From the NCBI GenBank assembly GCA_963934155.1, contig CAWVXI010000001.1, forward strand, positions 52,174 through 116,173: DNA of 64,000 bases, given 5' to 3'. Within the stretch, counting starts at the first letter, position 1. Each line of letters opens with the position of its first letter. This document shows, piece by piece, positions 5,469 to 53,017 of the stretch. The DNA is from an uncultured Verrucomicrobiales bacterium (lineage in GTDB: Bacteria > Verrucomicrobiota > Verrucomicrobiia > Verrucomicrobiales > Akkermansiaceae). The position numbers and the translations under genes were made by a program. The notes beneath the pieces were generated by a model, which saw only the letters and a list, made by a program, of their open reading frames with translations, was not told where the DNA came from and made no database searches.

Positions 5469-5498
5469 GTTATTTTATTTGTTAGTGTTTAGAAAATA

Positions 5499-28346: not shown

Positions 28347-29599
28347 CAAGATAAATACTGCAGAATCGCATCACCAGCCGGAATTTATAAATTAGCCATT
28401 CTCACCGAGGAGGATACGGAACTCTCAGACAAGGGTGCTCTCATTGCCTACTCAGGTGATAAAACTGGGCGGTCACCGAAAGATAAGCGGGTGGTGAAGT
28501 CCCCAGAAAGCGAAGATTCTATCTGGTGGGGTGAGGTCAATATCCCCATGGATGCGGCGCAATTTGAAATTAACAAAGAGCGCGCGCTCGATTACTTAGG
28601 GATTCAAGAGCCACTCTACGTGCTGGATGCATTCGCTGGTTGGAACCCAAACCATCGCTTGAAAGTGCGGGTGATTTGTTCGCGGCCATACCACGCGCTG
28701 TTCATGCACAACATGCTCATCAGACCCACGGATGAGGAACTTGCAGACTTTGGTGAGTCAGATTTCACCATTCTCAATGCGGCTAAGTTTCCTGCGAATG
28801 GACACACAGAAGGGATGAGTTCTAAGACGTCAATTGATCTCACTATAGAGGCAAGAGAAATGGTCATTCTTGGCACTGACTATGCTGGAGAGATGAAGAA
28901 GGGAGTCTTCACAATGATGAGCTACTTGATGCCAAAGGTAGGGAACTTGTCGATGCATTGTGGCGCTACGGCAGCAAAGGATAGCGAAGACTCGATGGTG
29001 CTATTCGGTCTCTCTGGCACAGGTGAAACCACGCTTTCTGCAGATACTAGTAGAAGACTGATCGGGGATGATGAGCATGTCTGGACAGATGATGGTATTT
29101 TCAATATCGAGGGTGGCTGTTATGCTAAGGCGATTGATTTAACAGAAGAATTTGAGCCAGAGATTTTCCACGCCTTACATTTCGGTGCGGTGCTAGAAAA
29201 TGTTACCATTGATGATCACCATCAGGTGAATTTTGAAGACACAAGCATCACGCAGAATAGCCGTGGTGCTTATCCTGTTGAGTTTATTTCTAATGCTAAA
29301 ATACCCTACGTAGCGGGGCAGCCCACTGATGTGGTGTTCCTAACATGTGATGCCTTTGGTGTGCTTCCTCCGGTGGCAAAACTTACCCCTGAGCAGGCGG
29401 CGCATCACTTTATTTCTGGCTACACAGCAAAAGTGGCGTTCCGTCAGATGTGTTAGATCCAAGTATATCATGGCCAGACCATAGTGAGTATGAAAAAACT
29501 GCGGCGTATCTAGCAGGGTTGTTCATCGAGAACTTTAAGCAATTTGAAGCTGGGGTGGCACCAGAAATCCTCAAGGCTGGACCAGTTCAAGGACACTAA
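28347..29599 (+). pseudogene. pckA: ATP-dependent phosphoenolpyruvate carboxykinase, decayed (no start, internal deletion with frameshift, Walker Lys replaced)
   Basis: The frame is open from 28347 with no ATG. GDKTGRSPKDKRVV, ILGTDYAGEMKKG and LIGDDEHVW..FNIEGGCYAK are clear PckA motifs. GLSGTGETTLS has Glu (GAA, 29025-29027) where GLSGTGKTTLS is invariant. After SGYTAK, at about 29430, the frame breaks. The C-terminal block GVPSDVLDPSISW...LFIENFKQF...AGP continues in the +2 frame to the TAA at 29597-29599, so roughly 150 or more codons are missing. Confidence 0.8.
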
Positions 29600-29693
29600 A
29601 AATAACTAGTTGATGAATCAGATAGTTCTAAAGAGAGTAAGGATCTACAGGTAGTGTGAGAGTATATTCCAACTTCAATACTAGTGACTTATC

Positions 29694-30533
29694 CTAGGCT
29701 CTGGATCTTCTCAAGATAAAGCCGACAAAAGCAAGGCCAACTAAAGCGGAAGAGCTGGGTTCTGGGACTGCAGCACTGCCATTAAGTGCAATAAAATCAT
29801 TAATCTCAGTTTCATAGGAACTCAGCTGGATATGATAGCCGATGTCAGGATCTTGAGTGTTATCTATAGCAGACATGATGCCGGCGATCTGCCAATTACT
29901 GCCATTATTATAAAACACACCTCCACCAGAATCGCCACCTGTCGCGTGTCCTTCGCCACTGGTGGCGGTGTCGTAATCTGTTGTGATCATTCTTGTAGGC
30001 CTCCCAGATACACTGGCTGCCTGATTTATTTCTTCTACGTTATTCGTTCCCCACCGTTTTGTTCCTCCACCAAAGCCGATCATGGTTAAAGCTTCACCAA
30101 CACGAGGAAAAGGACCAGTACTAGGAGGGCCAGCAACAGTGCCGATATTCAAAGTAGGCAGTCCTAGTATCGTAGTTTCTATGCGAAATAGTCTCAGGTC
30201 AGTATCACCTGTTGTAACCACACTATCAATAGTGAAAGTATCTTGTAGATCTAAAATATAGTTATTGTCTGAATTATATGTTGTTCCATTATAAGTCACC
30301 GAAGTAGAGCCTGAAGGAAATACATGCCTTGCGGTAAGAACCCAACCACCACCTATGTAAACCCCAGATGCACTGCCAACTCTGACGACATTCTCCCAAG
30401 GCGCACCTGAAGCGGGTGCTGTTTCATGAATTGATAGGTCTCCTCCTGTAGGGGTCAATACAGCCACAGCGTGAGCTACATGGAGTGAAGCTATTATAAA
30501 AATAGGGGTTAGTAGTTTAGCAAAAATTTTCAT
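29694..30533 (-). CDS. Trypsin-like serine protease with a PEP-CTERM sorting signal
   Basis: It has a signal peptide, WVLTARHV (His box), GGDSGGGVF (Ser box), and a C-terminal VPEPSSSALVGLAFVGFILRRSRA. Confidence 0.8.
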   Translation of the reverse strand: MKIFAKLLTPIFIIASLHVAHAVAVLTPTGGDLSIHETAPASGAPWENVVRVGSASGVYIGGGWVLTARHVFPSGSTSVTYNGTTYNSDNNYILDLQDTFTIDSVVTTGDTDLRLFRIETTILGLPTLNIGTVAGPPSTGPFPRVGEALTMIGFGGGTKRWGTNNVEEINQAASVSGRPTRMITTDYDTATSGEGHATGGDSGGGVFYNNGSNWQIAGIMSAIDNTQDPDIGYHIQLSSYETEINDFIALNGSAAVPEPSSSALVGLAFVGFILRRSRA

Positions 30534-30829: not shown

Positions 30830-32893
30830 TCAATGCATCTGCAATTCATGCGCATGCAGGAACCAGCGACGTTTGTCACAGGCCTTCCCTAGCGGTGTCT
30901 TTTGGCATCGCTTGACTAGCGCTTGATAGTATTTATCGGCTACCTTAGGGTCAGCTCTGGTCCAGTCGCCGGCTTGCCAGAGGAGTTTGGCCGCGTGGCT
31001 ATCGTTTTTAGGTAGTAGGATGGCAGCGCGGTAGAGGAGCTCCGCCGCATTTCTTTCTGTGGTAGATATGGGAGAAATTCTTATGTAATTTTGTTTGATA
31101 CGTTTTAGCTCATCAGGGGTGATTTTAGGGGTGAATTCTTTAGCTGATGGTAGTGGCTTAGCATAAGAGTCTGTTCTATCATATTTTTCATGCATCTTCC
31201 TACCAGCGGCGGAAACTCTAATGAATGGTCGGCAGCCGTTTTCGAGATAGAAGAGATCTCTTCCGTGCATGCGATAAATGCGTGAGGCTGAAACCAGCGC
31301 TTGCGCCCGTTTCTTCTTAGGCAGTGCTTTATTAATACCGATTCTATATAGATCTATGTATTTGTTATAAACCTTGAGGTCATCATCGGTCGCGAAGGTT
31401 TTGGCGTCCTTGAAATACTCATGGCGTATTAGCTTTCGAGTGAGTAGTGCTTTGATCCAATCGGATCTCTGGGCTATTTTAGAATTTCTAACATAATCTA
31501 ACAACTCGACAGGGCTGAGCAGAGTCTCGGCGATGTAGGCTGCGTCAACCTTGTTATCTACAGTCAGAAAGAGATCGAGCGCTTTGCCGTAATGTTTGAG
31601 ACCTAGTTCCACACAGGCATATTCTGAGTAGAGGTTGAAATACCGATTATTGGCTATTGTACCCGCCGCTCGATAGCTTCCGTAGTAGTCGGGTCTTTGG
31701 TATTCTTCACCCACACCCTCCAGATGAATGTTCTCAATAGTTTGACGATAGAGTTCAGCCGCCTTAGTGAGTTTACCTTTGATGGTGTTGAGTTTGGCTT
31801 GTTTCCAGAGTGATTCAGTGCTTGGTTTCTTCATCGATTTTAAACAAAGGTCCATTGATTTTTCATCATGGATGGAGTCTGCTATGGTTGCACAAATACC
31901 TAGTTCTTTGTCGATGTCGATACGCTTAGATTCTCTTAGAGACTTAATCCAGAGGGAGAGATTTTTTCTATTCTCTTGATTAGGGATCTCAGCTTGTTGA
32001 TGCACGTAGTGTTTGAAATGGCTTAAGATGAAATAGCTGAGCGCAATAGAATGATCCTTGTTTTTAGCGAGTGTTTTAAAGATCGCTGTCGGGTTTTCAT
32101 GATGTTCTTTAAGTGCTTGGGAGAAGACTTCGCTGATGTCGTTAGCCGCAGATACAGAATCGATTGTTTCGTCTTTTCCTCTTTTGATATAAATATTTAG
32201 AGCTGTCGTGTAATCTCCGCCTCTGAGTGAGAAAAATGCAGTCCAGTCTCTGTCTGTGACTTTAATAGAGTCAGGAAATCCGTCTTTCTTATACTGCTTG
32301 ACCTTAGCATACCATTGCATCGCTTCACCATCGGCAGTGGACGTCCGCGCTAGCATCCAAGCTACCCAAATGGTTTTGTATTTACGTTCTCCTTCAGGAA
32401 GGTCGAGCAGGTTTTTCCATTGTTCTCTGGCCTTATCAGATAGACCAGAGCGGTAGGCGACAGCTCCTCGGAGGTAGATAGAAAACTCCTTGGGGATAGC
32501 ATCTAGTGTCGCCTTATCTAGCCAGGATTTTGGTCGTTCGATTGCTAGATCACTTGCTGGCTGGTCCCAGGCTGCGATGATCATGTCTGAGCGGATAGCA
32601 GAGTAGGCATCAAACACGTTTTTAGCTAAGTTAGGAGCTGCTTTTTTTAGATCTGTAATGTCAGCATCATACGTAGCGCGCAGTCGCTTGGGGAGATTCT
32701 CTAGATGGCTATGAACATTTCTTTCCTTTTTATTGTGAGGAAACATCAGATCCACTCCTGTAGCTGGGCTCTGGATCACTGTGGACTTATAATTAAGCAG
32801 ACGGGTTGAGTAGTGTGGGCCGCAAGCAATGAGTATGGCAATACCAGCGATGAAAACGAGGACCATAGGGGTAAGTTTTTTTGAAGTTTTCAT
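30830..32893 (-). CDS. Large lipoprotein of unknown function (helical/TPR-like appearance)
   Basis: The 687-aa ORF has an LIACG lipobox. Its start overlaps the stop of the upstream gene by 4 nt (ATGA). Confidence 0.55.
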   Translation of the reverse strand: MKTSKKLTPMVLVFIAGIAILIACGPHYSTRLLNYKSTVIQSPATGVDLMFPHNKKERNVHSHLENLPKRLRATYDADITDLKKAAPNLAKNVFDAYSAIRSDMIIAAWDQPASDLAIERPKSWLDKATLDAIPKEFSIYLRGAVAYRSGLSDKAREQWKNLLDLPEGERKYKTIWVAWMLARTSTADGEAMQWYAKVKQYKKDGFPDSIKVTDRDWTAFFSLRGGDYTTALNIYIKRGKDETIDSVSAANDISEVFSQALKEHHENPTAIFKTLAKNKDHSIALSYFILSHFKHYVHQQAEIPNQENRKNLSLWIKSLRESKRIDIDKELGICATIADSIHDEKSMDLCLKSMKKPSTESLWKQAKLNTIKGKLTKAAELYRQTIENIHLEGVGEEYQRPDYYGSYRAAGTIANNRYFNLYSEYACVELGLKHYGKALDLFLTVDNKVDAAYIAETLLSPVELLDYVRNSKIAQRSDWIKALLTRKLIRHEYFKDAKTFATDDDLKVYNKYIDLYRIGINKALPKKKRAQALVSASRIYRMHGRDLFYLENGCRPFIRVSAAGRKMHEKYDRTDSYAKPLPSAKEFTPKITPDELKRIKQNYIRISPISTTERNAAELLYRAAILLPKNDSHAAKLLWQAGDWTRADPKVADKYYQALVKRCQKTPLGKACDKRRWFLHAHELQMH

Positions 32894-34161
32894 GGGGTAG
32901 AAATTTTTATTGATGGTGCGTTTTCGTTGAACCTAAATGAGCCTAAATGAATAGTTTCCCCGGGAGCGATAGGGTAGGGAGAAGTCTTTTTCCATTGAAT
33001 GGTGATGCCTTTACTTCTCTCAAAATGTTCAGTAGAGAAGTGATCTGTTAGATGGCTAGCGATACAGAATCCCTGCCAGTCGAGACGAATACTCAATGGC
33101 CAATCGAGCCGCTGCTTACTGTTGTTCGTCATCAGGAGTTGCTGTAAACCGTCTTTTGTGGTGATGATCGCTAGATCGAGTTCGGCAAGTGTAGGATACT
33201 CACCATGCCGCACTTTTTGAAAGGTATCCCAGGTCCAGTTCATACGGTCTGTGCTGACGGGGAGGCGGTACCAGATGATCCCTTGCATGAGCATTGGTCG
33301 TTGTTCCTGCCAACGCTGGATGAGGAGTGAGAGTTGAAATGGATCAGCACTAGCAACTTCGTAGCTGGTCTGCTGATAGTGACCTTCTGAAGCGATACTA
33401 AGGACTGTTCCATCTTGGCCATAGTTAATCGCATGGCGATATGTTGGTAGTGCAATGAGGAAGGGTTTGCCTAGTTCAGCACAGGCAAGTGCCGTCTTGT
33501 GAGCGTGATCAGGATTACACAGCGCTCTACCTTTTCCATGACCAGAGACACCGTGGACCTGCATGATGTAGCGGGCCAACCCAGTCTGTTGAAGCAGTGC
33601 GGCGAACTCTGGATAATTTAGCCAGTCTGGAAGACAGGTGATCTCTATTGTTTTGTCAGGGAATTGGTTCTTAAGATGGATGAGTAGCTTGGTGTAATCC
33701 GCGAGTTTTTTGGACGGGCAGTCGTAGTCAATCTGGATTGATTTAGCATCACCAGCATAGGTTGTGAGGAATTGTGAGATCTGCTCAGAAGCAGATTCTG
33801 ACCAGCGAGATTTCGCTGAATTGGCATGGATGCGGAATGCTAAGCCATATTCCCCAGGATGCTCACGGGCGTGCTGGAGAGGATGCGGGAATGGCTGACA
33901 GGTCCATTCACCACCAAGGTAAGAAATTTCCGCCGCAAGAAAAACAGTGTGATCGAATTCAGGTGCGTGAGTCATCACCGCAGACTTCACCTCATCAGTC
34001 CAAATCCGCTGCCAGACGTAGACTTCCTGAGAGATGTCGCCATTAGTGAACTCAATAGAGGTAAGTTTTTTATGATCGCATGAGGAGAAGTGAAACAACG
34101 AAAACAGCCCAAGAAAAAGTAGGTAGGTTAAGTAAAAATCTCTTTGAAGCAGCAACGGCAT
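32890..34161 (-). CDS. Lipoprotein of unknown function (possibly DUF3142-like, low confidence)
   Basis: The 423-aa ORF has an FSSC lipobox. The motif VYVWQRIWTDEV is reminiscent of DUF3142, recalled from memory only. Confidence 0.5.
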   Translation of the reverse strand: MPLLLQRDFYLTYLLFLGLFSLFHFSSCDHKKLTSIEFTNGDISQEVYVWQRIWTDEVKSAVMTHAPEFDHTVFLAAEISYLGGEWTCQPFPHPLQHAREHPGEYGLAFRIHANSAKSRWSESASEQISQFLTTYAGDAKSIQIDYDCPSKKLADYTKLLIHLKNQFPDKTIEITCLPDWLNYPEFAALLQQTGLARYIMQVHGVSGHGKGRALCNPDHAHKTALACAELGKPFLIALPTYRHAINYGQDGTVLSIASEGHYQQTSYEVASADPFQLSLLIQRWQEQRPMLMQGIIWYRLPVSTDRMNWTWDTFQKVRHGEYPTLAELDLAIITTKDGLQQLLMTNNSKQRLDWPLSIRLDWQGFCIASHLTDHFSTEHFERSKGITIQWKKTSPYPIAPGETIHLGSFRFNENAPSIKISTP

Positions 34162-34227
34162 ACTGTGGATACGAGATTTACTATCGTTACCTTACAAGTA
34201 ACATAGAGGTTATTCGCTAGCCGTAAA

Positions 34228-35109
34228 TTAGAAAGAGATCTCTAGTGCGCCGGATTTGATGGCGTCCATTTGGAGGGATTCCATGAGATCGAGGTTCGAG
34301 GGGATGCGGGCGAGGGGAGATTGGTGTTTTAGGGCGGCGTTGTGCCAGAGTGAGAAATGCTTGCTGTAGGTCTTTTTGTAGTCGCGCAACACGCTGGGTT
34401 CGATGCGGTGCGAGTGGCGGTTGTTAGACTCGGCATCGATGAATTCATAGTTCCCTTGCCAATCTGGATTCGCCTCTGACTGAGAAAACGGACAGAGAAT
34501 AATCATCGACCCCTGCCGTTGAGTGAAGTGCCGGATCACCGGACTCGCATCGCCTGGGAAGAGCAGGTCGCTGATGAACACCCGGATGGTGTTCGGCCTT
34601 AGTGGAACGTTTTCTAGATTTGGTGCTTGGTTCGGGTGCTCGTCTTTCAGTTCGGCGGAAGTGTGATACCATTGATCGCTGAGCACCGCTTCGACAGGGA
34701 GTTGTCGGTGACTGCCTCCCTTGATTAAATGGATATTAGTCGCCGCTCCAGCCTGTATGGCAGTGCTAACGATGGTGTAGAAAATCTCCGCCACACGAAT
34801 CGCCTTCTCTTCCTCAAAAAACATCGAGTCCGAGACATCCAGCACGATGTCAACTATAGGGCGAACCTCTTCACGATAGAGCTTCATCGTGTAGTTTCCC
34901 GAGCGCGCGTATGCCTGCCAGTTGATATGCCGTGGATCATCGCCTGGCACGTAGTTTCGGTGGTCTTGGAAATCTAGTGATGACCCAGACCCCGCACCTG
35001 AAAATTCACCAGCCATACCTCTCCAGACTCGCGAACGTAGCGGCAGGGAGACGTTCTCTGCGCAGACAGTGGCTTTGATTCTAGCTTGCTTTAGCTGTGC
35101 GGCGGTCAT
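34228..35109 (-). CDS. DUF58 (VWA-like) protein, the usual MoxR partner
   Basis: LDFQDHRNYVPGDDPRHINWQAYARSGNYTMKLYREE matches the DUF58 signature. The VWA-like segment begins VLDVSDSM. Confidence 0.8.
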   Translation of the reverse strand: MTAAQLKQARIKATVCAENVSLPLRSRVWRGMAGEFSGAGSGSSLDFQDHRNYVPGDDPRHINWQAYARSGNYTMKLYREEVRPIVDIVLDVSDSMFFEEEKAIRVAEIFYTIVSTAIQAGAATNIHLIKGGSHRQLPVEAVLSDQWYHTSAELKDEHPNQAPNLENVPLRPNTIRVFISDLLFPGDASPVIRHFTQRQGSMIILCPFSQSEANPDWQGNYEFIDAESNNRHSHRIEPSVLRDYKKTYSKHFSLWHNAALKHQSPLARIPSNLDLMESLQMDAIKSGALEISF

Positions 35110-35112
35110 CGC

Positions 35113-36612
35113 TTATTTACTTTCTGTTAGGTTCTTTTCAGCTTCGATGATGCCTTGAGCTTGTTGGTCATTATTTCTGATGTGTTTCCAGTAATTACTT
35201 GAAGTGATAAAGCATGCTACCCAGTAGATGAAGAACGTGGGTAAGGCGATTAAGTGCGCGACACCCTCAGTACTACTACGCTCAAAGATATTTAATTGCA
35301 CCGGTGGCAGCCAACAAAAGGCGCTGTAGATACCGTGTGATCTAGTCTCCTCCGCTATCGCGACAACAAGTAGCCATAGAATACCCGTAGCGACAACTCC
35401 TCCGAGGTAGAAGACGAATAGCAGGTGGGTGTTTCTGAAGAAAATGCGTGTGAGCAAAAGAGGGAATACGAGGCAGGAAAAGCAGATGCAGGTGATGGTC
35501 ATCATTTCTTGTCTGATATTATCATCATAGAAAGAATAGCTGTGGTTTGCCGTATAGAAAAGTGAAGATAATAATGTTAGAGCAAAAAGGATCATCACAA
35601 AATTAAGCCCAGATGCCCATCCAGGGTAGAGGAGATAACTAGCTATTTTCCCGAGGATCCCTTTTCTAACAAATGGCACACTCACAGTCGCGGTTGTGAA
35701 AGGATGCTCAGTGAGCGTAATGATACTGATAGGGACGGAGAGCAAAAGCATGATGATAGGTGCTGCTGCGCTCAAGTCTCGATCACTCACCCAGATGACA
35801 ATCGCTAACAGCACGATAATTCCCAAACAGATGAGCCTTCTCGGGGTGGAGCGGTTTTCTGAAATGGGTGCGATGCTGCCGGCTCCGTAGTCGAGCGCGA
35901 GCCAGCCACTATAGATCATTCCTAAAACAAGTAATAAATAGAGTGAGAGCATTCCAGGGCTCTGAAATGAACAGAGCTCAATAACCATGCGATAGCCGAA
36001 AGAATTTCCGAATAGACCAACCACTCCCATTCCGATAAAAAAGGCGCTACCCAGTCCGATCAGGCCACGTAGGATCAGCGAGGGAAGAGATGATATGCCG
36101 ATAAACACTGCGGTAAAGCCGGCTGAGGCGAGGAAAATCGTGAATAGAATCATCAACTCCGCAAACAATTGCATGCCGCCGAAAAAGTAACGTAAGATGA
36201 GATACGGTGTCACTGCTGCGATGATGAGAGCCGACTGCGACACCAGCGAAATCCATTTCCCAAACACGATCCGCCAAGCAGAGAGCTTAGTGATCACCAT
36301 GAGATCGATGGTGTTTTCCTTGATCTCAGATCCTATCGCTGAGATAGCTCTGAGTGGCTGGAGAACACAGGTCGCAAGCCCAATGCAAATAAACACCGAG
36401 GTCGAAATATCGTTGCCTGTGTTGTTGTATGAAGAGGAAAATGAATGACCTAAAATCAGCACACCCAAGATCACCTGGATAGCGATGAAGAGGATCATGA
36501 AGGACACGCCTTTGAGTCCTTGGCGTAGTTCCTTGACGAGCATCGGCGAGAGCCTGTCCGAGAAGTCTGAAGTCTTCAGGATGGCGGGGTGAATGGTGGA
36601 TTCTTCTGGCAT
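35113..36612 (-). CDS. Polytopic membrane protein, presumed permease partner of the adjacent ABC ATPase
   Basis: The 499-aa ORF has about 12 hydrophobic helices. It lies 96 nt downstream of the ABC ATPase and 3 nt upstream of DUF58. Confidence 0.6.
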   Translation of the reverse strand: MPEESTIHPAILKTSDFSDRLSPMLVKELRQGLKGVSFMILFIAIQVILGVLILGHSFSSSYNNTGNDISTSVFICIGLATCVLQPLRAISAIGSEIKENTIDLMVITKLSAWRIVFGKWISLVSQSALIIAAVTPYLILRYFFGGMQLFAELMILFTIFLASAGFTAVFIGISSLPSLILRGLIGLGSAFFIGMGVVGLFGNSFGYRMVIELCSFQSPGMLSLYLLLVLGMIYSGWLALDYGAGSIAPISENRSTPRRLICLGIIVLLAIVIWVSDRDLSAAAPIIMLLLSVPISIITLTEHPFTTATVSVPFVRKGILGKIASYLLYPGWASGLNFVMILFALTLLSSLFYTANHSYSFYDDNIRQEMMTITCICFSCLVFPLLLTRIFFRNTHLLFVFYLGGVVATGILWLLVVAIAEETRSHGIYSAFCWLPPVQLNIFERSSTEGVAHLIALPTFFIYWVACFITSSNYWKHIRNNDQQAQGIIEAEKNLTESK

Positions 36613-36618
36613 GAAAAA

Positions 36619-36649
36619 GTTTTAAGAGTTTTAAGTTTTAAGTATTAAG
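36619..36649. repeat. Tandem GTTTTAAG-type units (CTTAAAAC on the coding strand) directly 5' of the permease ATG
   Basis: The units are gttttaag (36619-26), gttttaag (36628-35), ttttaag (36636-42) and tattaag (36643-49). The start codon is at 36612-36610. Confidence 0.6.
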
Positions 36650-36708
36650 TCCTGGGTTGTGTGCTTGGGCTGATGTGGTCGGTAAGCTTACGCTTCCATC
36701 TTTTTGCG

Positions 36709-37647
36709 TTATTGCTGTTTCTCTAGGATATCGATGAATGCGTCTTCAAGATTCCGCTGTTCTTTATGGAATTCAATGATTGGTAAGCCGTCCTTCACCA
36801 TTCGGCGCAGCACATCGGCCGCCACTTCCGGGTCTTCTGAGTCCACCCGTATCCTGCCACCGCGCTTGCGGTCTTCTATGAATTCCACATAAGGCGAAGT
36901 CACCGCCCAGTCCGCGAGCTTAGTTATATCACCCACCACCTGGACATCATAAAAGAAGCCACCAGTGGAGTCTGATCCATGCAGCAGCGACTCCGCATCA
37001 CCGTGGTGGACGATCCTGCCATCGTTGATAAATAACAACGAGTCACACATTTCACCCAGCTCGGAGAGGATGTGTGATGAGATGAAAATAGTCTTTCCCT
37101 CCTCTGCCAGAATCCGGATCAGGTGCTTCAGCTCAACCCGTGCCTTTGGGTCTAGTCCGGCTGCTGGCTCATCTAGGATGAGGATTTGCGGATCATGGAT
37201 CAGCGCGCGTCCGAGACAGAGTCGCTGGGTCATGCCTTTTGAGAGCTTGTTAGAGAGGCGGTCCGCGAGCGGAAGGAGGTCTGCGAACTCCATCACTTCC
37301 TGAATCCGCATCTGCCTTTCCTTACCTTTGTATCCCAGTGCACGCGCATAGAAATCTAGATACTCTAGCACCGTCATGTGGTCGTAATTCCCAAAATGAT
37401 CTGGCATCCAACCCAGCAGAGACCGAACTTTAGCCGGGTGGTTGACCACGTTGATACCACAGATTTCCACCGAGCCCATCGTCGGGTAATCTAGTGTGGC
37501 GAGCATCCGCATGGTGGTGGTTTTCCCTGCGCCATTGGCTCCGATAAATCCACACACGGAGCCGTGCGGTACTTCAAAGCTGAGACCATCGACCGCCTTG
37601 AGCTTGCCGAAATAGCGATAGAGGTTTTTGACTGAAATTGCTGACAT
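36709..37647 (-). CDS. ABC transporter ATP-binding protein (ABC-2/NatA-like)
   Basis: The motifs are Walker A GANGAGKTT, signature LSKGMTQR and Walker B ILILDEPAAGLD. Confidence 0.85.
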   Translation of the reverse strand: MSAISVKNLYRYFGKLKAVDGLSFEVPHGSVCGFIGANGAGKTTTMRMLATLDYPTMGSVEICGINVVNHPAKVRSLLGWMPDHFGNYDHMTVLEYLDFYARALGYKGKERQMRIQEVMEFADLLPLADRLSNKLSKGMTQRLCLGRALIHDPQILILDEPAAGLDPKARVELKHLIRILAEEGKTIFISSHILSELGEMCDSLLFINDGRIVHHGDAESLLHGSDSTGGFFYDVQVVGDITKLADWAVTSPYVEFIEDRKRGGRIRVDSEDPEVAADVLRRMVKDGLPIIEFHKEQRNLEDAFIDILEKQQ

Positions 37648-37653
37648 GTAGAA

Positions 37654-37688
37654 GTTTTAAGATTAAAGTTTTAAGTTTAAAGTGTAAG
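37654..37688. repeat. A second block of tandem GTTTTAAG-type units, directly 5' of the ABC ATPase ATG
   Basis: The units are gttttaag (37654-61), gttttaag (37668-75), tttaaag (37676-82) and tgtaagg (37683-88). The start codon is at 37647-37645. Confidence 0.6.
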
Positions 37689-37690
37689 GC

Positions 37691-39529
37691 TTACCTGACA
37701 ACCGGTCCGGTGATGATAGATTCGGTACGGTTCCACTTGATGGAATCTAGGGTGCTGATGGCAGGAGCCTCATCGGTGATCGCGATGAAGTGGTTCTTGC
37801 GTTTGCTTAGGGTGTCTAGTTTTGCTTGGAGTTTAGTGGACATGTTGGCGTGGTGCTTGTGGATCAGCTTGAGCGTATCTACAGGAGTGCTAGGGGTAAG
37901 TTTTTTTGAGTCGCCAGCTGCGATGTTAGAGGCCTCCCATGCCTGACCTGACTCATCAATGTAGATCAGCGATTGGATTTCATAGTCGAATGATGAGTTC
38001 ACTACTGGAGCCCCTACGCTGCTTTTGAGAGTGATTCTGCTACGTGTAGAAATGATGCTTTCTAGGTAGTGACCATGCACCGAGCGCGACTGGAACCAAT
38101 CGCCAGATGCGGCGAGTCCGTTCTCGCCATGTTTCGCTGTGTAGTTCGCTGACCCGCCGCCGTTCTCCCTTGTGACTCGAGAGAAGCGCGATGGTGAAAC
38201 CGGAACAGGGGACATGTAAGTGGGCGCTGAAGTTTCAAATGATCCACCGAGAATGACTCCTGTGCGGGCAACTTGTTCTTGCCAGATATAAGCTTTATTT
38301 TCGCCACCATCTGCCCGCACCTCGATGAGCTGAACGCGCTGGCCGTAGCCCCCGAACCCATCCTGAATAATAATCAGCAGCACCAGCAATAAACTAGCAC
38401 CGAGCGCGATGATAGGAGTCGTGATAAACAAGCGATGCCGCTGGCCTGCCTTAGCAAAGACGAATAGGTTCAATGGTCCCACGAGGACACCAAAGGCGAT
38501 GAGAATGAGGATGAGATAAACGGGAGAAAAGTTGAGCTTGCCGAGTGCTTTCTGAAGTGACCAAGCCCCTGAGCCAGTGTAATCAGATTCGTAGTTATCA
38601 TTGATGGCTCGAATTTTAGCGGATTTATTTTTCGGGATATTAATGATTTTCGAAGCTTGGTTTACATCGAGGGACATTATCGTAGCCAGCGGCATTATCG
38701 TCACGTTTCCAAAGGAACGGTCGATTCTAGTCTTACTGATGTTATCATCAGAATCATCTATTTTAAGCGATTTGAAATTTGAGGCTGCATTGAGCTTATA
38801 AATCAGAATATTTCCTCCTAGGCGGTTCCATTCTAAGATGGCATTTTGTACTCCAGCGGGCATTTCTCGCCAGTCGTCATCGGTGCAAATGATGGCATCA
38901 AACCCACTGTAGGCTCGCCAGTCCTCAGACATGTTAGAGGGGGTGAACTCAGAGGTGTATTCCTCATTGCCACTTCTGTATCCTCTGGAGCTAGCTGGGA
39001 TGAGGCTGTTAAATTTAGAGCTATGCTGCACGAAGAGTTCTGTGCTGAGTAGGGTTGCAGGCTGATCCATATGCTGATTGCAGCTCATGCTGTCAGGTAT
39101 TGTTTTTCCATCGGAGGTCAGCTTGATCGAGAGTGTGGAGGCTGCCTTGTCTGTATGGGATTTTGGGATAGAGGTGACCACAGGGACCAGGATATCATAG
39201 GTCTTAGTGCTCTCAGGCGGGCAGCTGTAGCTAAATTTGGATGTTAGGGTAGGGTGGTCACTATTTCTTCCAAAAGAATAGTCACCCTTAGCTTCCGAAT
39301 TAAAATCCAGCTTCCATTCTTTCTCAAACTTAGTGCCATTCTTCAGGGTCAGCCTTAATGGCATGTAACCACTGCTGGGGAGTGAGCCAACAAGTGGTGA
39401 AAGCGTTGCTGTGGTCTTATTTTTTTTATCGTCAGAATGATTGATGAGTTCGCGCTGGGCGTGGAGTTCCGCACTCGTTACGAATAAGATGAGTAGCAGG
39501 GCAGTGAGTGATTTCTTAAACTGGATCAT
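37691..39529 (-). CDS. Large membrane protein of unknown function (signal peptide, central TM hairpin)
   Basis: The 612-aa ORF has a signal peptide and two central TM helices (VYLILILIAFGVLVGPLNLFVF and LFITTPIIALGASLLLVLLIII). The stretch FDAIICTDDDWREMP..ILEWNRLGGNILIY is faintly reminiscent of GATase1-like/ABC-auxiliary domains. Confidence 0.55.
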   Translation of the reverse strand: MIQFKKSLTALLLILFVTSAELHAQRELINHSDDKKNKTTATLSPLVGSLPSSGYMPLRLTLKNGTKFEKEWKLDFNSEAKGDYSFGRNSDHPTLTSKFSYSCPPESTKTYDILVPVVTSIPKSHTDKAASTLSIKLTSDGKTIPDSMSCNQHMDQPATLLSTELFVQHSSKFNSLIPASSRGYRSGNEEYTSEFTPSNMSEDWRAYSGFDAIICTDDDWREMPAGVQNAILEWNRLGGNILIYKLNAASNFKSLKIDDSDDNISKTRIDRSFGNVTIMPLATIMSLDVNQASKIINIPKNKSAKIRAINDNYESDYTGSGAWSLQKALGKLNFSPVYLILILIAFGVLVGPLNLFVFAKAGQRHRLFITTPIIALGASLLLVLLIIIQDGFGGYGQRVQLIEVRADGGENKAYIWQEQVARTGVILGGSFETSAPTYMSPVPVSPSRFSRVTRENGGGSANYTAKHGENGLAASGDWFQSRSVHGHYLESIISTRSRITLKSSVGAPVVNSSFDYEIQSLIYIDESGQAWEASNIAAGDSKKLTPSTPVDTLKLIHKHHANMSTKLQAKLDTLSKRKNHFIAITDEAPAISTLDSIKWNRTESIITGPVVR

Positions 39530-39546
39530 GGAGAAAATTTGTTAGA

Positions 39547-40554
39547 TTAAGTTGATTTGATCGTCTTAGGCGTGGACCTATCTTGACCAGGTATTTCCTT
39601 CAGAAGATTCATCACCACATCGTTCGTAGTGATGCCCTCTACCCGAGCATTATAGTCTAACAGAATCCTGTGTCGGATCACCGCCGGGGCGACATATGCC
39701 ACATCCTCGAATGAGGCGTGGGTGCGCTCATTGATCAGGGCGCGTGCTTTAGCGGCAGAGGCCAGCGAGAGCGCAGCACGTGGGCTAGCTCCGTATTTCA
39801 CATTAGCCGATGCAGCGGACTGCCCCGGATGCGTGGCATCCACTAGTCTGGCAATATAGTTAGCCACCACATCAGGCAGGTAAATCTTCCTCACTAGCCT
39901 GAGTAAAGTCTCCAGCGTGCCAGCATCCATGATGGTATCGACATACGGCTCGGTCCCGAGCTCACGCGATGTCACTATCTTCTGCAGCGTAGCAACTGAG
40001 TTCCGCGTGACCTCAAGCTTAAACAAAAACCGATCCAACTGAGCCTCCGGCAGCGGATAAGTTCCTTCCAGTTCGATGGGGTTCTGGGTAGCCAGCACGA
40101 AAAACGGACTCGGCAGCGGATGCGTCTCACCAATGACCGTGACCCGCTGTTCCTGCATCGCTTCTAATAGTGCAGACTGGGTTTTAGGAGAAGCTCGGTT
40201 GATCTCATCAGCCAGCATGATGTTGGTGAATAGTGGGCCGGGCTGAAATTTAAACTCCCTGCGGCCATCAACCTCCTGCAACACTGGATTTCCCGTGATG
40301 TCTCCGGGCAGGAGGTCTGGGGTAAATTGAATCCGCTTGGTATCCAGCCCCAGAGTCTTAGACAGCCCCTTGACCAGTTCCGTTTTCCCCAGCCCTGGCA
40401 GTCCCTCGAGTAAAATATGACCACGAGCCAGTAGCCCAGTGATGACGAGATCAATCAGTTGTTCCTGACCGAAGAGAACTTGGTTTAGCGCAGTATTAAG
40501 TGAGCGGATGTGCTTGGCGGCATTGGTGACTTCAGTTTCTGATGCGTATTCCAT
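39547..40554 (-). CDS. MoxR-family AAA+ ATPase
   Basis: GLPGLGKTELVK is Walker A. LADEINRASPKTQSALLEAMQE is Walker B plus the MoxR signature. The start is taken at MEYASETE (40554). Confidence 0.85.
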   Translation of the reverse strand: MEYASETEVTNAAKHIRSLNTALNQVLFGQEQLIDLVITGLLARGHILLEGLPGLGKTELVKGLSKTLGLDTKRIQFTPDLLPGDITGNPVLQEVDGRREFKFQPGPLFTNIMLADEINRASPKTQSALLEAMQEQRVTVIGETHPLPSPFFVLATQNPIELEGTYPLPEAQLDRFLFKLEVTRNSVATLQKIVTSRELGTEPYVDTIMDAGTLETLLRLVRKIYLPDVVANYIARLVDATHPGQSAASANVKYGASPRAALSLASAAKARALINERTHASFEDVAYVAPAVIRHRILLDYNARVEGITTNDVVMNLLKEIPGQDRSTPKTIKST

Positions 40555-40833: not shown

Positions 40834-41106
40834 TCACATCAGCCAAATACCAACTGCGGTGACTAATGTGCTGATAATGAAAACAACGGCGAGAGAAAAA
40901 GAGGAAGAACTACGATCACGAAACGCATCTGAAATACCTCTGCTGAAGCCAAGGATGAATGAGAACAAACCGCCTAAAAGAAATACATCTGCCCATTGCC
41001 ATACTGCAACTTCGTTACTGTCATCCCTGGAAAATGCGAGTCCTATAGCGGAAAGAGAGGCTAAAATACCACCTAATATAGCGAGTATCAGTCCTAGCGA
41101 TTCCAT
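40834..41106 (-). CDS. Small membrane protein (3 TM), hypothetical
   Basis: The 90-aa ORF has hydrophobic segments. The opposite-strand ORF 40826-41137 is less protein-like. Confidence 0.45.
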   Translation of the reverse strand: MESLGLILAILGGILASLSAIGLAFSRDDSNEVAVWQWADVFLLGGLFSFILGFSRGISDAFRDRSSSSFSLAVVFIISTLVTAVGIWLM

Positions 41107-43286: not shown

Positions 43287-43549
43287 ATGAAAGAACTCTA
43301 CTACATCGGACTAGACGTGCACAAGGACACAGTTGGCACTGTCATCATTCGGCTCCTTCGTATAACATTAAACGTCACCAAGACCCCCCACTAGTGTAAC
43401 AACCCGCTAAGGCAGAAAACGGAATCAAAATAGTATAACTAACGGCCACCCAGAGCCTTCGACCCTGGGCTCGTGTCATCACGTGCGTAGCTATACGGGA
43501 CAACAACCGATCACTTCGATGTTCGCTACCGTTCAATCAAAGCTATCTT
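43115..43549 (+). mobile_element. Type-1 repeat copy A: internally deleted IS110-family element (94-nt shared module, leader, transposase N- and C-terminal stubs, right end)
   Basis: The ATG at 43287 gives MKELYYIGLDVHKDTV, the canonical IS110/DEDD transposase N-terminus. It is fused directly to ..RLLRITLNVTKTPH, a C-terminal-type tail. Copy A is near-identical to copy D (46921-47408). Confidence 0.75.
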
Positions 43550-44955
43550 TGAGGTTCTACTTTCTGTGACTTCCGCTTTGTCATCAACTGTGCCCCGATC
43601 CGTTTTTTCCATGCGTTGAGTTTCTCTTTCAATTTAGCAGTTACTTCGGGCATAGTGTCAGCCAGGTTTCTTTGTTCACCTGGATCTTTAATCAAATCAT
43701 AGAGTTCAAAGGCATTTGCTTGGTCATAAGCAGACCTTTCAAACCATTCGATCAATTTGTAGCGCCCCATTCGGACGGCACCTTGTGGACCTAGGCCTAG
43801 GCTGTGATAATGTGGGAAATGCCAATAAACTGCTTCACGAGTTAGTTTCGCCCCCGAATCCTTCAAGAGAGGAAGAAAATTGATACCGTCAACATCCTTG
43901 GCTGTGGAAGATCCACCGGCAATGGCTGTGATAGTAGGAAAGAAATCATTACTTATCACAACCTCTCCGCACTCACTTCCGGGGGTGATGACACCCGGCC
44001 ATTTGATAATTAGCGGCATGCGAATGCCGCCCTCATAGAGATCACCTTTGCTGCCCCTGAACGGCTTGCCATTCTTGGGTCCCAATTGTCCATTATCTGA
44101 ATAGAAAAATACTATCGTATTCTTTTCAAGTCCCAGTTTTTCTAGTGTCATTAGGATGGTGCCCACGCTCTTATCCAGTGTCTCAAGCATCGCTGCCTGC
44201 TTAGGGTTGTTTCTTTTGTTCGTTTTTGCCTCAGGCTTCGTGGCATATTTCTCAACAAGAGCTTTTTTCTCGATTTCCGGAGAGTGAATGCTGTTGTGCG
44301 TCACGTAGCAGAAAAAAGGCTTGTTCTTGTTGTTCTGAATAAAAGCAATGGATCTTTCCGTGATTTCCCGAACATGATGCCAGTCTTCGTCGTACATGCT
44401 TTTCGGGCCAGCGCCTGGCTTGTGGGTTGTTAGTACATCATCAAAGCCCTGCGAGCCGGGGTCTCCGGGTCGACCGGGTTTGTATTTCTTGTCTACATTC
44501 AAATGCCATTTTCCGAAATGCCCGGTTACATATCCGGCGTTTTTCAGGGATTCCGCGATGGTGACCTCTTTGAGAGGAAGGTGTTTCTGCCAGTCCGGCG
44601 TAATGAGTTTTTTGTCTTTTGGATTCCCTCCCGGAATAAAGTCGGTGAGGTGAAGGCGAGCAGGATATTTGCCCGTCATGATACTCGCCCTTGTAGGCGA
44701 ACAGATAGGTGCGGCCGCATAGGCATTAGTAAATCTCACCCCTTCTTTTACCAGTCGATCAATATTTGGAGTCTCGTAAAATTTGCTACCATAAGAGCTC
44801 AGTTGATAGCGGCCAAGGTCATCCGCTAGTATGAAAACAATATTGGGCTTGGTTCTTCCATCATCCGCAAGTCCATACGCACAATACGGAAATGCAAGCA
44901 GAACAACACTGAATGCTTTTAGGAATGATCTATAATTAGTGAGAATGTTACTCAT
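43543..44955 (-). CDS. Sulfatase (formylglycine-dependent arylsulfatase family)
   Basis: It has a signal peptide and the CSPTRASIMTG (C-x-P-x-R) motif. DDLG and GKWH motifs are present, and the length is 470 aa. Confidence 0.85.
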   Translation of the reverse strand: MSNILTNYRSFLKAFSVVLLAFPYCAYGLADDGRTKPNIVFILADDLGRYQLSSYGSKFYETPNIDRLVKEGVRFTNAYAAAPICSPTRASIMTGKYPARLHLTDFIPGGNPKDKKLITPDWQKHLPLKEVTIAESLKNAGYVTGHFGKWHLNVDKKYKPGRPGDPGSQGFDDVLTTHKPGAGPKSMYDEDWHHVREITERSIAFIQNNKNKPFFCYVTHNSIHSPEIEKKALVEKYATKPEAKTNKRNNPKQAAMLETLDKSVGTILMTLEKLGLEKNTIVFFYSDNGQLGPKNGKPFRGSKGDLYEGGIRMPLIIKWPGVITPGSECGEVVISNDFFPTITAIAGGSSTAKDVDGINFLPLLKDSGAKLTREAVYWHFPHYHSLGLGPQGAVRMGRYKLIEWFERSAYDQANAFELYDLIKDPGEQRNLADTMPEVTAKLKEKLNAWKKRIGAQLMTKRKSQKVEPQR

Positions 44956-50395: not shown

Positions 50396-53017
50396 ATGGC
50401 GTCCATGATCAGATCCGAGATACACATTCCAGACCACGAGGTGCTGCGCAAGATCGGCGGTGGTGCTTATGGTGAAGTGTGGATGGCACGTGGCGTGACC
50501 GGTGCTCTAAGGGCAGTGAAGGTGGTGTGGAGAGAGGACTTCGAGGATGAGCGTGGCTTCGAACGCGAGTTCGAGGGGATTTTAAAGTTTGAGCCTATTT
50601 CGCGGGATCACCCGGGGCTGGTGAATATTTTGCATGTAGGACGCGGTAATGATAGCGAAAATCCATTTTACTATTATGTGATGGAGCTGGGCGACGATGT
50701 GCATAGTAGCAGAGAGTTTAACCCCGTGGAGTATCAAGCGCGGACGCTGCGAAGTGATCTAAAGGCGAGTGAGGGAGTTCCGCTGGATGTGGGCTTCTGT
50801 ATTGATGTCGGGCAGCGACTAGCTGAGTCACTGCAGTATTTGCATGAGAAGGATCTAGCGCATCGTGATGTGAAGCCAGCAAATGTTATTTTTGTGGAAG
50901 GTAAAGCTAAGCTGGCTGATATAGGATTGGTGGCGGCGAGAGGTCAGCAGACATTTGTGGGCACTGAGGGCTTCGTCCCGCCTGAGGGTCCTGGATCTGG
51001 GCAGGCGGATATTTATAGCCTAGGCAAGGTTCTCTATGAAATGGCCACGGGTAAGGATAGATTACAGTTTCCTGAACTCCCAGAAGAGCTTGCAGAGGGG
51101 ACGAACAAGAAGCACTGGGTAGCACTCAATGAGTTGATCTGTAATATTTGTGACCCAAAGTTGAGTAAGAGGACGATCAATACAGCTCAGAAACTTGCGG
51201 AATCCTTAGCAAAAATAAAACAGGGCAAGAAGATCCGTATAGAGGCTAAGAGTGGAACACTTAGGACAGCGTTAGCCATACTGCTTTTTGGTGGTGCAAG
51301 CTTTGGGGTCTATTATTCCAAGCCCTGGCAGGCGTCTGAGACGCTTGTTTCTGGTGGTTCTGGTATTCCACTAAGCTCAGTGGTGCAGCCTGAGCCTGAG
51401 CCTAAATATCAGTTCAAGGTTTGCTCAGTACAGTTTATCTCACATCCTAATCATGCAGAAATCACTGGGCATGGGAAGGATCAGTATTACGAGACCAATA
51501 CCGAATTTATCGAGTATCCACCGGGGACGGCGTTGAATTTAGTATTTAAACGTGATGGCTACCGGCCTAAGTCAGTAGAGTTTATGGTGCCAGATAAGCA
51601 GTTTGAGTTTTTTCAAGTGACTCTAGATACATTCCTACCACCGAAGGTAAACCAGGTCTGGGTGGACTCCGAGGGGGCTCGTTATTTCCCGCGGGTGGAC
51701 TTCCATGAATCAGGATTTGTGCGGAATGAGCATTTCAAGAGATTTCTGGAGACGAAGGTGAAGGTGGATCCTTTCAGCGTAGAGAATTTTAGTGAGCGAG
51801 GAGAGAAGGTGTCGATCGTGATGATGACGGCTAATACGGCGCAGAAATATGTATCGTGGCTAGAAAAAGAGGCGAAATTGCAAGGTCTGTTAGAGTATGA
51901 TCAGTACATCGTTTACCAGCAAGATAGAAGCCTAAAAGTAGGCGCTGCGGATAAGCTAGAGGAGAAAAAGAAGAGACAACAGTTTGCCACAAAATGCATC
52001 GCAAAGATGATTCCATTCGCGACGCTAGAGCTCACGAGCACGCCAGCGGGTGCTGATGTTTACGTTGATGATGAATGGGTGGGTGTGACGCCGATGTTGC
52101 AGCCTAGACTGAGGCCAAAGAAGGTGAAGGTAGAATTTAACCTGGATGGATATAAGGCGAACGTGCAGCAGATCGAGCTGTCAGATAATGAGCTGAAGCC
52201 AGTCTCTGTAAATCTAAAGCAGAATAACGGAGTGGTGTTTAATCAGGAATGGATGAATGGCCTGAAGGTAAAGATGGTTCCATTCGATGATGGGAAACTG
52301 GCCTCTAGCTGGGAGGTAAGAGTGAAGGATTACAACCAGTTTACTAGGGCTACTGGTCACCGACTACCTAACAATCCGTTGTTTCCTCAGAAGCCAGATC
52401 ACCCGGTGGTGGGGGTGAATAGATCTGATGCGGTGACATTTTGTAAATGGCTCACTGAGAAGGAAAGAAAGGAAGACAGGATACGTCCACGGCATGAATA
52501 TAGACTTCCTACTGATGTGGAATGGAGCTTATTCTGCGGGCTGGCTGATGAGCTAGGGGCGAGTCCTGGAGGTAGATCTTACTTTGCTCAAAATAATCCT
52601 GAACTGATAGACACATATCCGTGGGGCAAGATATTTCCACCGGAAATGAAGGTGGCGAATTTAGCGGATAAGGCCGCGGCAAAGGCAGTTGGCATCCCAG
52701 ATGAAAGAGTTATTGCCGGTTATGCTGATGGCTTCACAAATACTGCACCAGTGGGCTCATTTGAGCCGAACAAACTAGGGATGTATGATATATCAGGGAA
52801 TGTATTCGAGTGGATACAGGATTCCTACAGAGAGGATGGAGATCTAGATCTTGGCGTAGTCAGAGGTGGGAGCTGGGCCACATTTCAGGCTAAGGATCTT
52901 AGGTCTTGGAGTCGATTCCCCATCAGCAAATACATGCGTGATAATCAGTATGGTTTCAGAGTGGTCTTAGTGGAAACCGCTGAAGAAGTGGAAACCACAC
53001 AAGAAGACGAAGAATGA
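50396..53017 (+). CDS. Ser/Thr protein kinase with a TM segment, PEGA-like domains and a C-terminal FGE/SUMF1-like domain
   Basis: The kinase motifs are GGGAYGEVW, AVK, HRDVKPANV, DIGL and GTEGFVPPE. A TM helix (ALAILLFGGASFGVYY) follows. TSTPAGADVYVDDEWVGVTP is PEGA-like. The C-terminal NVFEWIQDSY...VVRGGSW is the FGE-sulfatase fold. Confidence 0.85.
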   Translation: MASMIRSEIHIPDHEVLRKIGGGAYGEVWMARGVTGALRAVKVVWREDFEDERGFEREFEGILKFEPISRDHPGLVNILHVGRGNDSENPFYYYVMELGDDVHSSREFNPVEYQARTLRSDLKASEGVPLDVGFCIDVGQRLAESLQYLHEKDLAHRDVKPANVIFVEGKAKLADIGLVAARGQQTFVGTEGFVPPEGPGSGQADIYSLGKVLYEMATGKDRLQFPELPEELAEGTNKKHWVALNELICNICDPKLSKRTINTAQKLAESLAKIKQGKKIRIEAKSGTLRTALAILLFGGASFGVYYSKPWQASETLVSGGSGIPLSSVVQPEPEPKYQFKVCSVQFISHPNHAEITGHGKDQYYETNTEFIEYPPGTALNLVFKRDGYRPKSVEFMVPDKQFEFFQVTLDTFLPPKVNQVWVDSEGARYFPRVDFHESGFVRNEHFKRFLETKVKVDPFSVENFSERGEKVSIVMMTANTAQKYVSWLEKEAKLQGLLEYDQYIVYQQDRSLKVGAADKLEEKKKRQQFATKCIAKMIPFATLELTSTPAGADVYVDDEWVGVTPMLQPRLRPKKVKVEFNLDGYKANVQQIELSDNELKPVSVNLKQNNGVVFNQEWMNGLKVKMVPFDDGKLASSWEVRVKDYNQFTRATGHRLPNNPLFPQKPDHPVVGVNRSDAVTFCKWLTEKERKEDRIRPRHEYRLPTDVEWSLFCGLADELGASPGGRSYFAQNNPELIDTYPWGKIFPPEMKVANLADKAAAKAVGIPDERVIAGYADGFTNTAPVGSFEPNKLGMYDISGNVFEWIQDSYREDGDLDLGVVRGGSWATFQAKDLRSWSRFPISKYMRDNQYGFRVVLVETAEEVETTQEDEE

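Follow-up and report, generated by a model that had tools for sequence, protein, structure and literature searches.

Operons of the Bat type, which run in the order MoxR…DUF58-BatA-VWA, combine an MRP-type MoxR ATPase (AAA_3) with a DUF58 protein and have a predicted envelope location. We describe here a locus that shares these features and in which the genes for MoxR and DUF58 are separated by three others, encoding a 612-amino-acid (aa) envelope protein that we call X612, an ATP-binding cassette (ABC) ATPase and a polytopic permease. It lies in a stretch of 64,000 nucleotides (nt) from an uncultured Verrucomicrobiales bacterium (Akkermansiaceae; assembly GCA_963934155.1, contig CAWVXI010000001.1, positions 52,174 to 116,173 of the forward strand), referred to below as the window; positions are those of the window unless another locus is named. 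We know of no such insertion of X612, ABC and permease genes in the described Bat loci, and a full-text literature search found no published description of a module of MoxR, ABC transporter and DUF58. The window and its nearest relatives further differ from Bat-type operons in having no BatA/B at the locus, and Pfam scans, where made of the genes at a locus, turned up none of the BatC/D/E type (TPR or BatD).

Other described systems resemble the locus in part. The archaeal and actinobacterial DUF4350 (arCOG01314)-MoxR-vWA system, predicted to act in secretion or membrane remodelling (Makarova, Galperin and Koonin 2015, PMC5898192), likewise joins MoxR to a DUF58-type vWA protein, and its membrane-anchored protein has outside the cytoplasm a flavodoxin-like domain, a fold that X612 may share; it also encodes Ig-like proteins with 2-4 transmembrane (TM) segments and is found on haloarchaeal plasmids as well. 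The archaeal loci, however, contain no ABC ATPase/permease within the module, their gene order and strands differ, and X612 has no significant similarity to haloarchaeal DUF4350 or DUF1616 proteins. In the MoxR-vWA-YebA-like transglutaminase operon, a cytoplasmic MoxR-vWA pair is tied genetically to a polytopic inner-membrane protein, and the logic proposed is that vWA recruits a client which MoxR then remodels at the membrane (Zhang and Aravind 2012, PMC3495828). The present module lacks a transglutaminase-like domain, and its membrane partners are instead the ABC permease and X612. Common to both studies is the proposal that MoxR-vWA pairs act on membrane-associated partners (PMC3495828, PMC5898192).

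With GldA-GldF-GldG of Bacteroidota, the module shares a DrrA/GldA-like ATPase, a polytopic permease and the lack of a substrate-binding protein. X612 also parallels GldG in being anchored in the membrane and, as modelled, extending a large part into the periplasm, and its α/β domain may have the flavodoxin-like GIFT/DUF4350 fold. GldF-type permeases have about 6 TM helices, whereas the module permease has about 12 in 499 aa and no ABC-2 match; GldG has terminal anchors, whereas X612 has a central TM hairpin and does not match the GldG-type model (ABC_transp_aux). We know of no MoxR or DUF58 protein associated with GldAFG. NosD-NosF-NosY is similar in that a separate protein of the periplasm, docked on the permease, works with the ABC-2-type ATPase/permease, and some orthologues of the module permease carry the NosY-like label COG1277. 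There are, however, no N2O reductase or copper chaperone genes near the module and no significant sequence match to NosDFY, and, by our reading of its model, X612 lacks the β-helix of NosD.

A separation of MoxR from DUF58 is not by itself unique: haloarchaeal DUF4350-MoxR loci place the pair one to two genes apart, on opposite strands. On haloarchaeal plasmids, DUF4350 is often encoded directly upstream of MoxR. In pNPA200 of Natrinema pallidum (locus L090, 1-11078), the DUF4350-MoxR genes, with DUF58 nearby, are separated by some 5 kb from genes on the opposite strand for an ABC ATPase, a permease and a PGF-pre-PGF surface protein, an arrangement that could be a loose parallel to the association of MoxR with an ABC transporter.

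Conservation of the five-gene core

The core genes are all on the minus strand and encode, in the direction of reading, MoxR (335 aa, cytoplasmic, 39547-40554), X612 (37691-39529), the ABC ATPase (312 aa, 36709-37647), the putative permease (499 aa, 35113-36612) and DUF58 (293 aa, 34228-35109). Three more genes follow on this strand, for a putative DUF3142 lipoprotein (423 aa, 32890-34161), a putative lipoprotein of 687 aa (30830-32893) and a protein with Trypsin and PEP-CTERM matches in Pfam (29694-30533). The gaps from moxR to the DUF3142 gene measure 17, 43, 96, 3 and 66 nt in turn, the 3 nt being those between the permease stop and the DUF58 start; the two lipoprotein genes overlap by 4 nt, and 296 nt then lead to the protease gene. 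The list of open reading frames (ORFs) reproduces every ORF, coordinate and gap of the sequence-only reading, an earlier account of this DNA. The longest ORF for moxR begins with a TTG at 40614; we place the start at the ATG at 40554, because the resulting 335 aa correspond to the length of the orthologues.

Through X612 we fetched 85 related loci (four of them duplicates) and searched them by tblastn with the proteins of the window; 63 had enough flanking DNA. With the canonical order defined as MoxR-X612-ABC-permease-DUF58 on one strand within 7.5 kb, 48 of these 63 species-level Verrucomicrobiales genomes have it, and called-gene tables back the order in Oceaniferula spumae, Luteolibacter flavescens and three Rubritalea-like or Akkermansiaceae metagenome-assembled genomes (MAGs). 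In the majority of related loci the gene immediately preceding X612 is moxR, and the permease follows the ABC ATPase in nearly all that have the ATPase, the exception being L022, where no permease match was found. The genes flanking the core vary from locus to locus, and include TamB/TamA, ThrE, BatA/VWA, and DUF455 with genes of a type II secretion system. Between genera, identity is about 80% for MoxR, about 79% for the ABC ATPase, 54% for DUF58 and about 38% for X612 and the permease. Since the order is kept at only some 38% identity of the two membrane components, it has outlived a long divergence. Its occurrence in 48 of 63 genomes puts the clustering of the five genes from MoxR to DUF58 beyond chance, which cannot be said of the lipoprotein pair and the protease. 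A gene order conserved in no relative had been set beforehand as a result that would refute the sequence-only reading, and for the five-gene core that order is conserved; the splitting of MoxR and DUF58 by an ABC ATPase/permease and a large unknown membrane protein is thus kept across many Verrucomicrobiales genera.

The X612 homologues that carry names belong to Verrucomicrobiae (Oceaniferula, Luteolibacter, Haloferula and Akkermansiaceae MAGs). A profile search returned 710 representative clusters (at 50% identity) with E≤1e-30 and 2694 with E≤1e-3. Relatives of X612 were found in 280 genomes when one genome per species was scanned, with patterns specific to the X612 hairpin that say nothing on absence outside Verrucomicrobiales; the best 80 of the 280 belong to Verrucomicrobiales, save for a small number of MAGs that have evidently been mis-binned. 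A module of the Verrucomicrobiales type also occurs on MAG contigs labelled Cryomorphaceae, Thermodesulfobacteriota or ‘Akkermansia muciniphila’ (the oddly labelled loci are L006, JBLHQF010000130.1; L018, CAXMPP010000143.1; and L020, L066, L069, L070 and L072), those under the last name coming apparently from environmental samples. These labels are probably binning or labelling errors.

Proteins encoded by the core

The identities read from the sequence for MoxR, the ABC ATPase, DUF58 and the Trypsin/PEP-CTERM protein are borne out by Pfam. MoxR matches AAA_3 (5.4e-62, 208 bits against a cut-off of 27) and AAA_lid_2 (2.7e-18), and both its Walker A (GLPGLGKT) and Walker B (LADEINR) motifs, read from the translation, are intact. 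The DUF58 protein matches PF01882 (8e-14, 51.7 bits against a cut-off of 23.4) and by hydropathy has no hydrophobic segment of the TM or signal-peptide kind, and is thus presumably cytoplasmic. Its metal ion-dependent adhesion site (MIDAS) motif, DxSxS (D91-V-S93-D-S95; 34825-34839, minus strand), has D91, S93 and S95 conserved in at least 97% of 35 orthologues from related loci; a PDB search with the protein gave nothing meaningful.

The ABC ATPase matches ABC_tran (1e-26) and DrrA1-3_C (3e-4) in Pfam, and in NCBIfam scores 222 bits with drrA and 217.7 bits with GldA (TIGR03522), both under the equivalog cut-offs, which for TIGR03522 is 402.6 bits. These scores place it in the DrrA/GldA subfamily, of the DrrA/GldA/NodI (ABC-2 exporter) type, and not among GldA equivalogs. 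The locus has the features expected of an ABC-2 exporter, namely a DrrA-like nucleotide-binding domain, an adjacent polytopic permease and no gene for a substrate-binding protein present with the module. The permease itself is predicted by hydropathy to have about 12 TM helices with short loops. Its N-terminal half is highly conserved (DFSDKLSPMLVKELRQG…), and a comparison of this half with the C-terminal half detected no internal duplication. ABC2_membrane_3 is matched by 1 of 29 permeases, at 0.035, and a weak match to SecY in the PDB search was set aside as noise from TM composition. Orthologues are called ‘ABC transporter permease’ by NCBI and UniRef, and are COG1277-like in JGI.

Neither X612, the permease nor the 687-aa protein has a match in Pfam or NCBIfam. 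For X612 and the permease, searches of the two databases up to E≤1 gave no family-relevant match, X612 having only chance ones to MzrA (0.067) and YLATT (0.22). Sequence and profile searches of the PDB with X612 gave nothing meaningful; nor was any bridging Pfam domain found in its atypical relatives (894 aa and others). We describe the protein from an AlphaFold2 model built on 29 homologues (pLDDT, the predicted local distance difference test, 83.5; pTM, the predicted template-modelling score, 0.84). It begins with a signal peptide (residues 1-24, 39458-39529, minus strand, as are all its parts), for which the model has a helix at 2-18; a cleavage site LHA/Q was read by eye, and A24 and Q25 are invariant among the homologues. 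Judged in this way, the signal peptide appears cleavable, in contrast to the N-termini of the 423- and 687-aa proteins, which have plausible lipoboxes. A periplasmic β-sandwich would follow (residues 29-153, 39071-39445, from DSSP of the model), then a flavodoxin-like α/β domain (residues 159-312, 38594-39055; sub-domain model pLDDT 78.6), a TM hairpin with a short basic cytoplasmic loop (residues 336-390, 38360-38524) and a C-terminal periplasmic β-rich domain (residues 395-609, 37703-38347, assigned by DSSP, pLDDT mostly 80-94). The hairpin, recognised from invariant columns, the model and hydropathy, has its helices at 336-360 and 367-390 in the model, and conservation along the protein peaks at its motif NLFVFAKxGxRHRLFITTP, with invariant columns from P352 to P372. 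Invariant residues of the C-terminal domain include Q417, E418, Q419, R422, D477 and Q480-S483. By topology, the model would leave the invariant loop KxGxRHR as the sole part facing the cytoplasm, with both large domains in the periplasm.

Searched with Foldseek against the PDB, the whole chain retrieved only generic β-sandwich proteins (μ-homology, arrestin and FXIII barrels) with low TM-scores. The α/β domain gave weak matches, at E between 0.02 and 0.15, to GH42 (0.02), the N-terminal domain of IFT52 (0.07), flavodoxin and receiver domains. The GIFT domain was reportedly defined by Beatson and Ponting in 2004 from GldG and IFT52, and trimerisation domains of the pfam08532 type belong to GH42 proteins. 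The β-galactosidase trimerisation domain (pfam08532), which has a flavodoxin fold, has been tied to GldG/DUF4350 (PMC5898192). DUF4350 itself is matched below threshold by 3 of 29 X612 members (best E 0.0055), and one UniRef entry of the family is named ‘DUF4350 domain-containing’. The fold of the α/β domain is thus flavodoxin-like as modelled, and a link to GldG, DUF4350 or GIFT is suggestive only. Profile-profile comparison (hhalign) of X612 and the permease with DUF4350, DUF1616 and the other genes flanking MoxR and DUF58 on four haloarchaeal plasmids gave nothing significant. A kinship of X612 with three families met at related loci, BatA/DUF7407, a VWA family of about 900 aa and a family of about 440 aa encoded upstream of moxR, was rejected by the same method, and we regard them as unrelated.

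A proposed envelope machine

Taking these families, the conserved order and the model of X612 together, we propose that the products of the five genes make up an ABC envelope machine like GldAFG, assembled or remodelled by a cytoplasmic MoxR-vWA pair, a proposal to which we give about even chances. The genes are presumably co-transcribed and their products physically associated. The tight spacing of the core genes in the window also speaks for the proposal, the gaps of 17, 43, 96 and 3 nt holding no terminator-like site. The DrrA/GldA-like cytoplasmic ATPase would drive the divergent polytopic permease of the inner membrane. X612 would be bound to that permease by its invariant TM hairpin, and its β-sandwich, flavodoxin-like domain and C-terminal β domain would be the periplasmic parts of the machine. 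Such an assembly, comparable in layout to GldA-GldF-GldG or NosF-NosY-NosD, may serve to export a component of the envelope, or else to pass force from one side of the membrane to the other. A MoxR hexamer and DUF58, with its intact MIDAS, would bind to the cytoplasmic face of the complex, where the MIDAS could latch onto an acidic ligand, a candidate being the invariant DFSD…E N-terminus of the permease. Following the logic put forward for MoxR-vWA pairs (PMC3495828, PMC5898192), the AAA+ ring would then assemble, remodel or gate the complex, as such pairs do with other client complexes. The further step, that the MoxR/vWA pair is mechanistically coupled to the ABC transporter through the hairpin-anchored X612, as an undescribed machine present order-wide, we put forward more tentatively, at somewhat short of even chances. 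Recurrent neighbours of the module include the envelope genes TamB/TamA, Kdo transferase and BatA/VWA; they agree with an envelope role and prove nothing.

Several results weigh against this proposal. The permease has no detectable sequence similarity to ABC-2 permease families in Pfam and NCBIfam or to PDB entries, and its putative role rests on its position, its topology and the names given by other annotators. The link of X612 to GldG/DUF4350 is weak, with Foldseek E values of 0.02 or worse, and hhalign of X612 against two haloarchaeal DUF4350 proteins found nothing. Scans of the window for promoters and terminators gave counts that were not above those of shuffled controls, and are therefore uninformative. 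Finally, 15 of the 63 loci depart from the canonical order, from which it follows that the parts can be encoded apart.

The departures have a pattern of their own. Loci of the Roseibacillus type retain MoxR-X612 without the ABC ATPase, permease and DUF58, and in Roseibacillus persicicus a MarR-like gene on the other strand follows the two. Loci of a second type, represented by L053, retain X612-ABC-permease without MoxR and DUF58, with PurT, an aminotransferase and a Kdo transferase in the flanks of L053. In a third group DUF58 is not detectable; in L059, for instance, the genes that come straight after the permease lie on the opposite strand. Since X612 stays with either half, it looks like the link between them, and these variants are the best available evidence for X612 as the hub.

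Relation to Bat loci and alternative readings

The sequence-only reading had set the module in contrast to Bat loci, and this contrast does not stand. Downstream of the core, Luteolibacter, Haloferula and Oceaniferula have BatA/DUF7407 and VWA genes: clustering of ORFs places a family of about 610 aa (Pfam BatA and DUF7407) directly after DUF58 in 29 loci, and a VWA family of about 900 aa further downstream in 24, recreating the Bat order. As the module runs on into BatA/VWA in these genera, it is a variant of Bat-type loci, and comparison of the gene orders makes the ancestral locus look like a MoxR…DUF58-BatA-VWA operon of the Bat type in which X612-ABC-permease lies embedded between MoxR and DUF58. 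At the other end, a family of about 440 aa with no Pfam match is encoded just upstream of moxR in 12 loci (for example L001, 7615-8934, and L015, 7567-8886), and in the loci inspected a protein of about 490 aa with a faint squalene-hopene-cyclase-like repeat often precedes it; both may be further components of an extended module. One could therefore argue that a Bat-type complex of MoxR, DUF58, the BatA-like protein and VWA is the real machine, as in other phyla, and that X612, the ABC ATPase and the permease are lineage-specific accessories inserted into its operon, perhaps to supply or remove a component, instead of the client of MoxR-DUF58. We consider this unlikely: the large ORFs of the 64-kb window that were run against Pfam include no BatA or VWA, the closer relatives of the window have the five-gene core intact with no BatA/VWA adjoining, and the Roseibacillus-type loci keep MoxR-X612 where BatA-like genes, too, are missing.

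Alternatively, two independent systems could simply be interleaved, a generic MoxR-DUF58 pair and an X612-ABC-permease transporter, their order inherited by descent with no functional coupling. All our evidence comes from Verrucomicrobiales, so that ancestry alone could keep the order, and in some loci the halves do occur apart. Set against this, the five genes have stayed together, in order and closely spaced, through repeated reshuffling of their flanks and down to about 38% identity of their membrane components, and the broken modules keep X612 with one half or the other, which is not what random loss would leave. Independence of the two halves seems to us quite improbable.

Very improbable, in our view, is a role in the maturation of metal cofactors or metalloenzymes, in which the MoxR-vWA pair and a NosY-like ABC permease would jointly, like NorQ/NorD, CoxD/E or NosDFY, deliver a metal centre into a periplasmic enzyme. 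Several of the studied MoxR-vWA pairs do mature metal centres, which speaks for this role, and JGI calls several of the permease orthologues ‘ABC-type transport system involved in multi-copper enzyme maturation permease’. That name is, however, a generic COG label, the X612 model, with its β-sandwich and α/β domains, shows by our reading no sign of a NosD-like β-helix, and no candidate metalloenzyme, metallochaperone or NosD/NosL-like gene was found at or beside the loci examined.

A machine of seven genes, with the DUF3142 and 687-aa lipoproteins as components or cargo, is suggested by the window itself, in which both genes lie on the strand of the core, 66 nt after DUF58 with no predicted terminator in between. 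The 423-aa protein proved to be DUF3142 (PF11340; 5e-29, 102.1 bits against a cut-off of 30), so that of the three proteins first described as being of no recognisable family only those of 612 and 687 aa remain so. Both lipoproteins have lipobox-like N-termini as judged by eye (…HFSSC in the 423-aa and …ILIAC in the 687-aa protein), and PDB searches with the two gave nothing meaningful. Homologues of the 687-aa protein number 9 in 5.8 billion proteins, one with a faint TPR_12 match. By tblastn, neither lipoprotein has a homologue in the 85 X612 loci, not even in relatives whose X612 is 72-76% identical and whose downstream DNA extends for several kb or more, and the protease has none in these loci either. 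As in the window, the pair comes after DUF58 in L086 (4647-8002), the one close relative whose context was read, and this adjacency is seen in these two places only; in L087 (8754-12037), by contrast, the overlapping DUF3142-687 pair has a RecF/SMC-like gene on one side and a two-component system on the other, and no MoxR module is near. On these comparisons the pair is an independent, overlapping two-gene unit, a neighbour and not a component of the module, and so, separately, is the PEP-CTERM protease an unrelated neighbour. A seven-gene machine is largely refuted by the comparative data, and we give it scarcely any credence. Of the three large envelope proteins originally joined to the module, X612 thus keeps its place, as part of the conserved core, while those of 423 and 687 aa lose theirs; a dedicated envelope machine is still the best reading for the five-gene core, and the two lipoproteins are not parts of it.

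Next to no chance, in our view, can be given to a role in NTP-dependent conflict or defence, as a ternary MoxR-vWA system, since the match of MoxR to bpMoxR (PF20030; 42.6 bits, above the cut-off of 27) is far exceeded by that to AAA_3, PADLOC returned generic P-loop matches and nothing specific, no effector or β-propeller domain was found in Pfam and no β-propeller recognised in the model, and order-wide conservation with a MoxR about 80% identical is unlike the sporadic distribution of mobile defence islands.

Other features of the window

The 721-nt gap 5' of moxR holds an ORF of 90 aa (40834-41106, minus strand) that resembles three TM helices; neither it nor a membrane protein of 221 aa is conserved in related loci. 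An Rfam scan of the window gave no match.

Downstream of the protease lies a gene for ATP-dependent phosphoenolpyruvate carboxykinase (28491-29456, plus strand) that looks broken. It covers positions 47-361 of the 465 of PEPCK_ATP in Pfam, has a stop just upstream of its GTG start and ends just after …ISGYTAKVA; a C-terminus typical of the enzyme (…LDPSISWPDHSEYEKTAAYLAGLFIENFKQFEAGV…AGP) is found some 30 nt on in another frame (about 29480-29640, plus strand), with an estimated 100 codons or so missing between the fragments. The gene is either a pseudogene or an assembly error. Elsewhere in the window, an 873-aa fusion (50396-53017, plus strand) joins a Ser/Thr protein kinase with PEGA and FGE-sulfatase (formylglycine-generating-enzyme-like) domains, and a sulfatase gene is found at 43543-44955. 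An 883-aa PSCyt/PSD protein (DUF1585/1588/1592/1595), followed by DUF1552 (HXXSHH), is encoded at 4071-8150 on the minus strand, a pair typical of Planctomycetes and Verrucomicrobia, in agreement with an origin of the window in the PVC superphylum.

Implications for MoxR-DUF58 systems

Of the bacterial gene clusters for which neither client nor mechanism is known, MRP-type MoxR-DUF58 (Bat-like) operons rank among the commonest. The conserved order around a transporter points to candidate clients, the permease and X612, and the comparison defines two families for which Pfam has no model, X612 and the 12-TM permease, while removing a false lead by placing the two lipoproteins outside the module. 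The module, in full or in part, is present in cultured Verrucomicrobiales, among them Luteolibacter, Haloferula, Oceaniferula and Roseibacillus. If the coupling of MoxR/vWA to the transporter through X612 is true, this would be the first MoxR system with an ABC transporter complex as its client, and it would provide Bat-type MoxR-DUF58 systems with a concrete, testable membrane partner.

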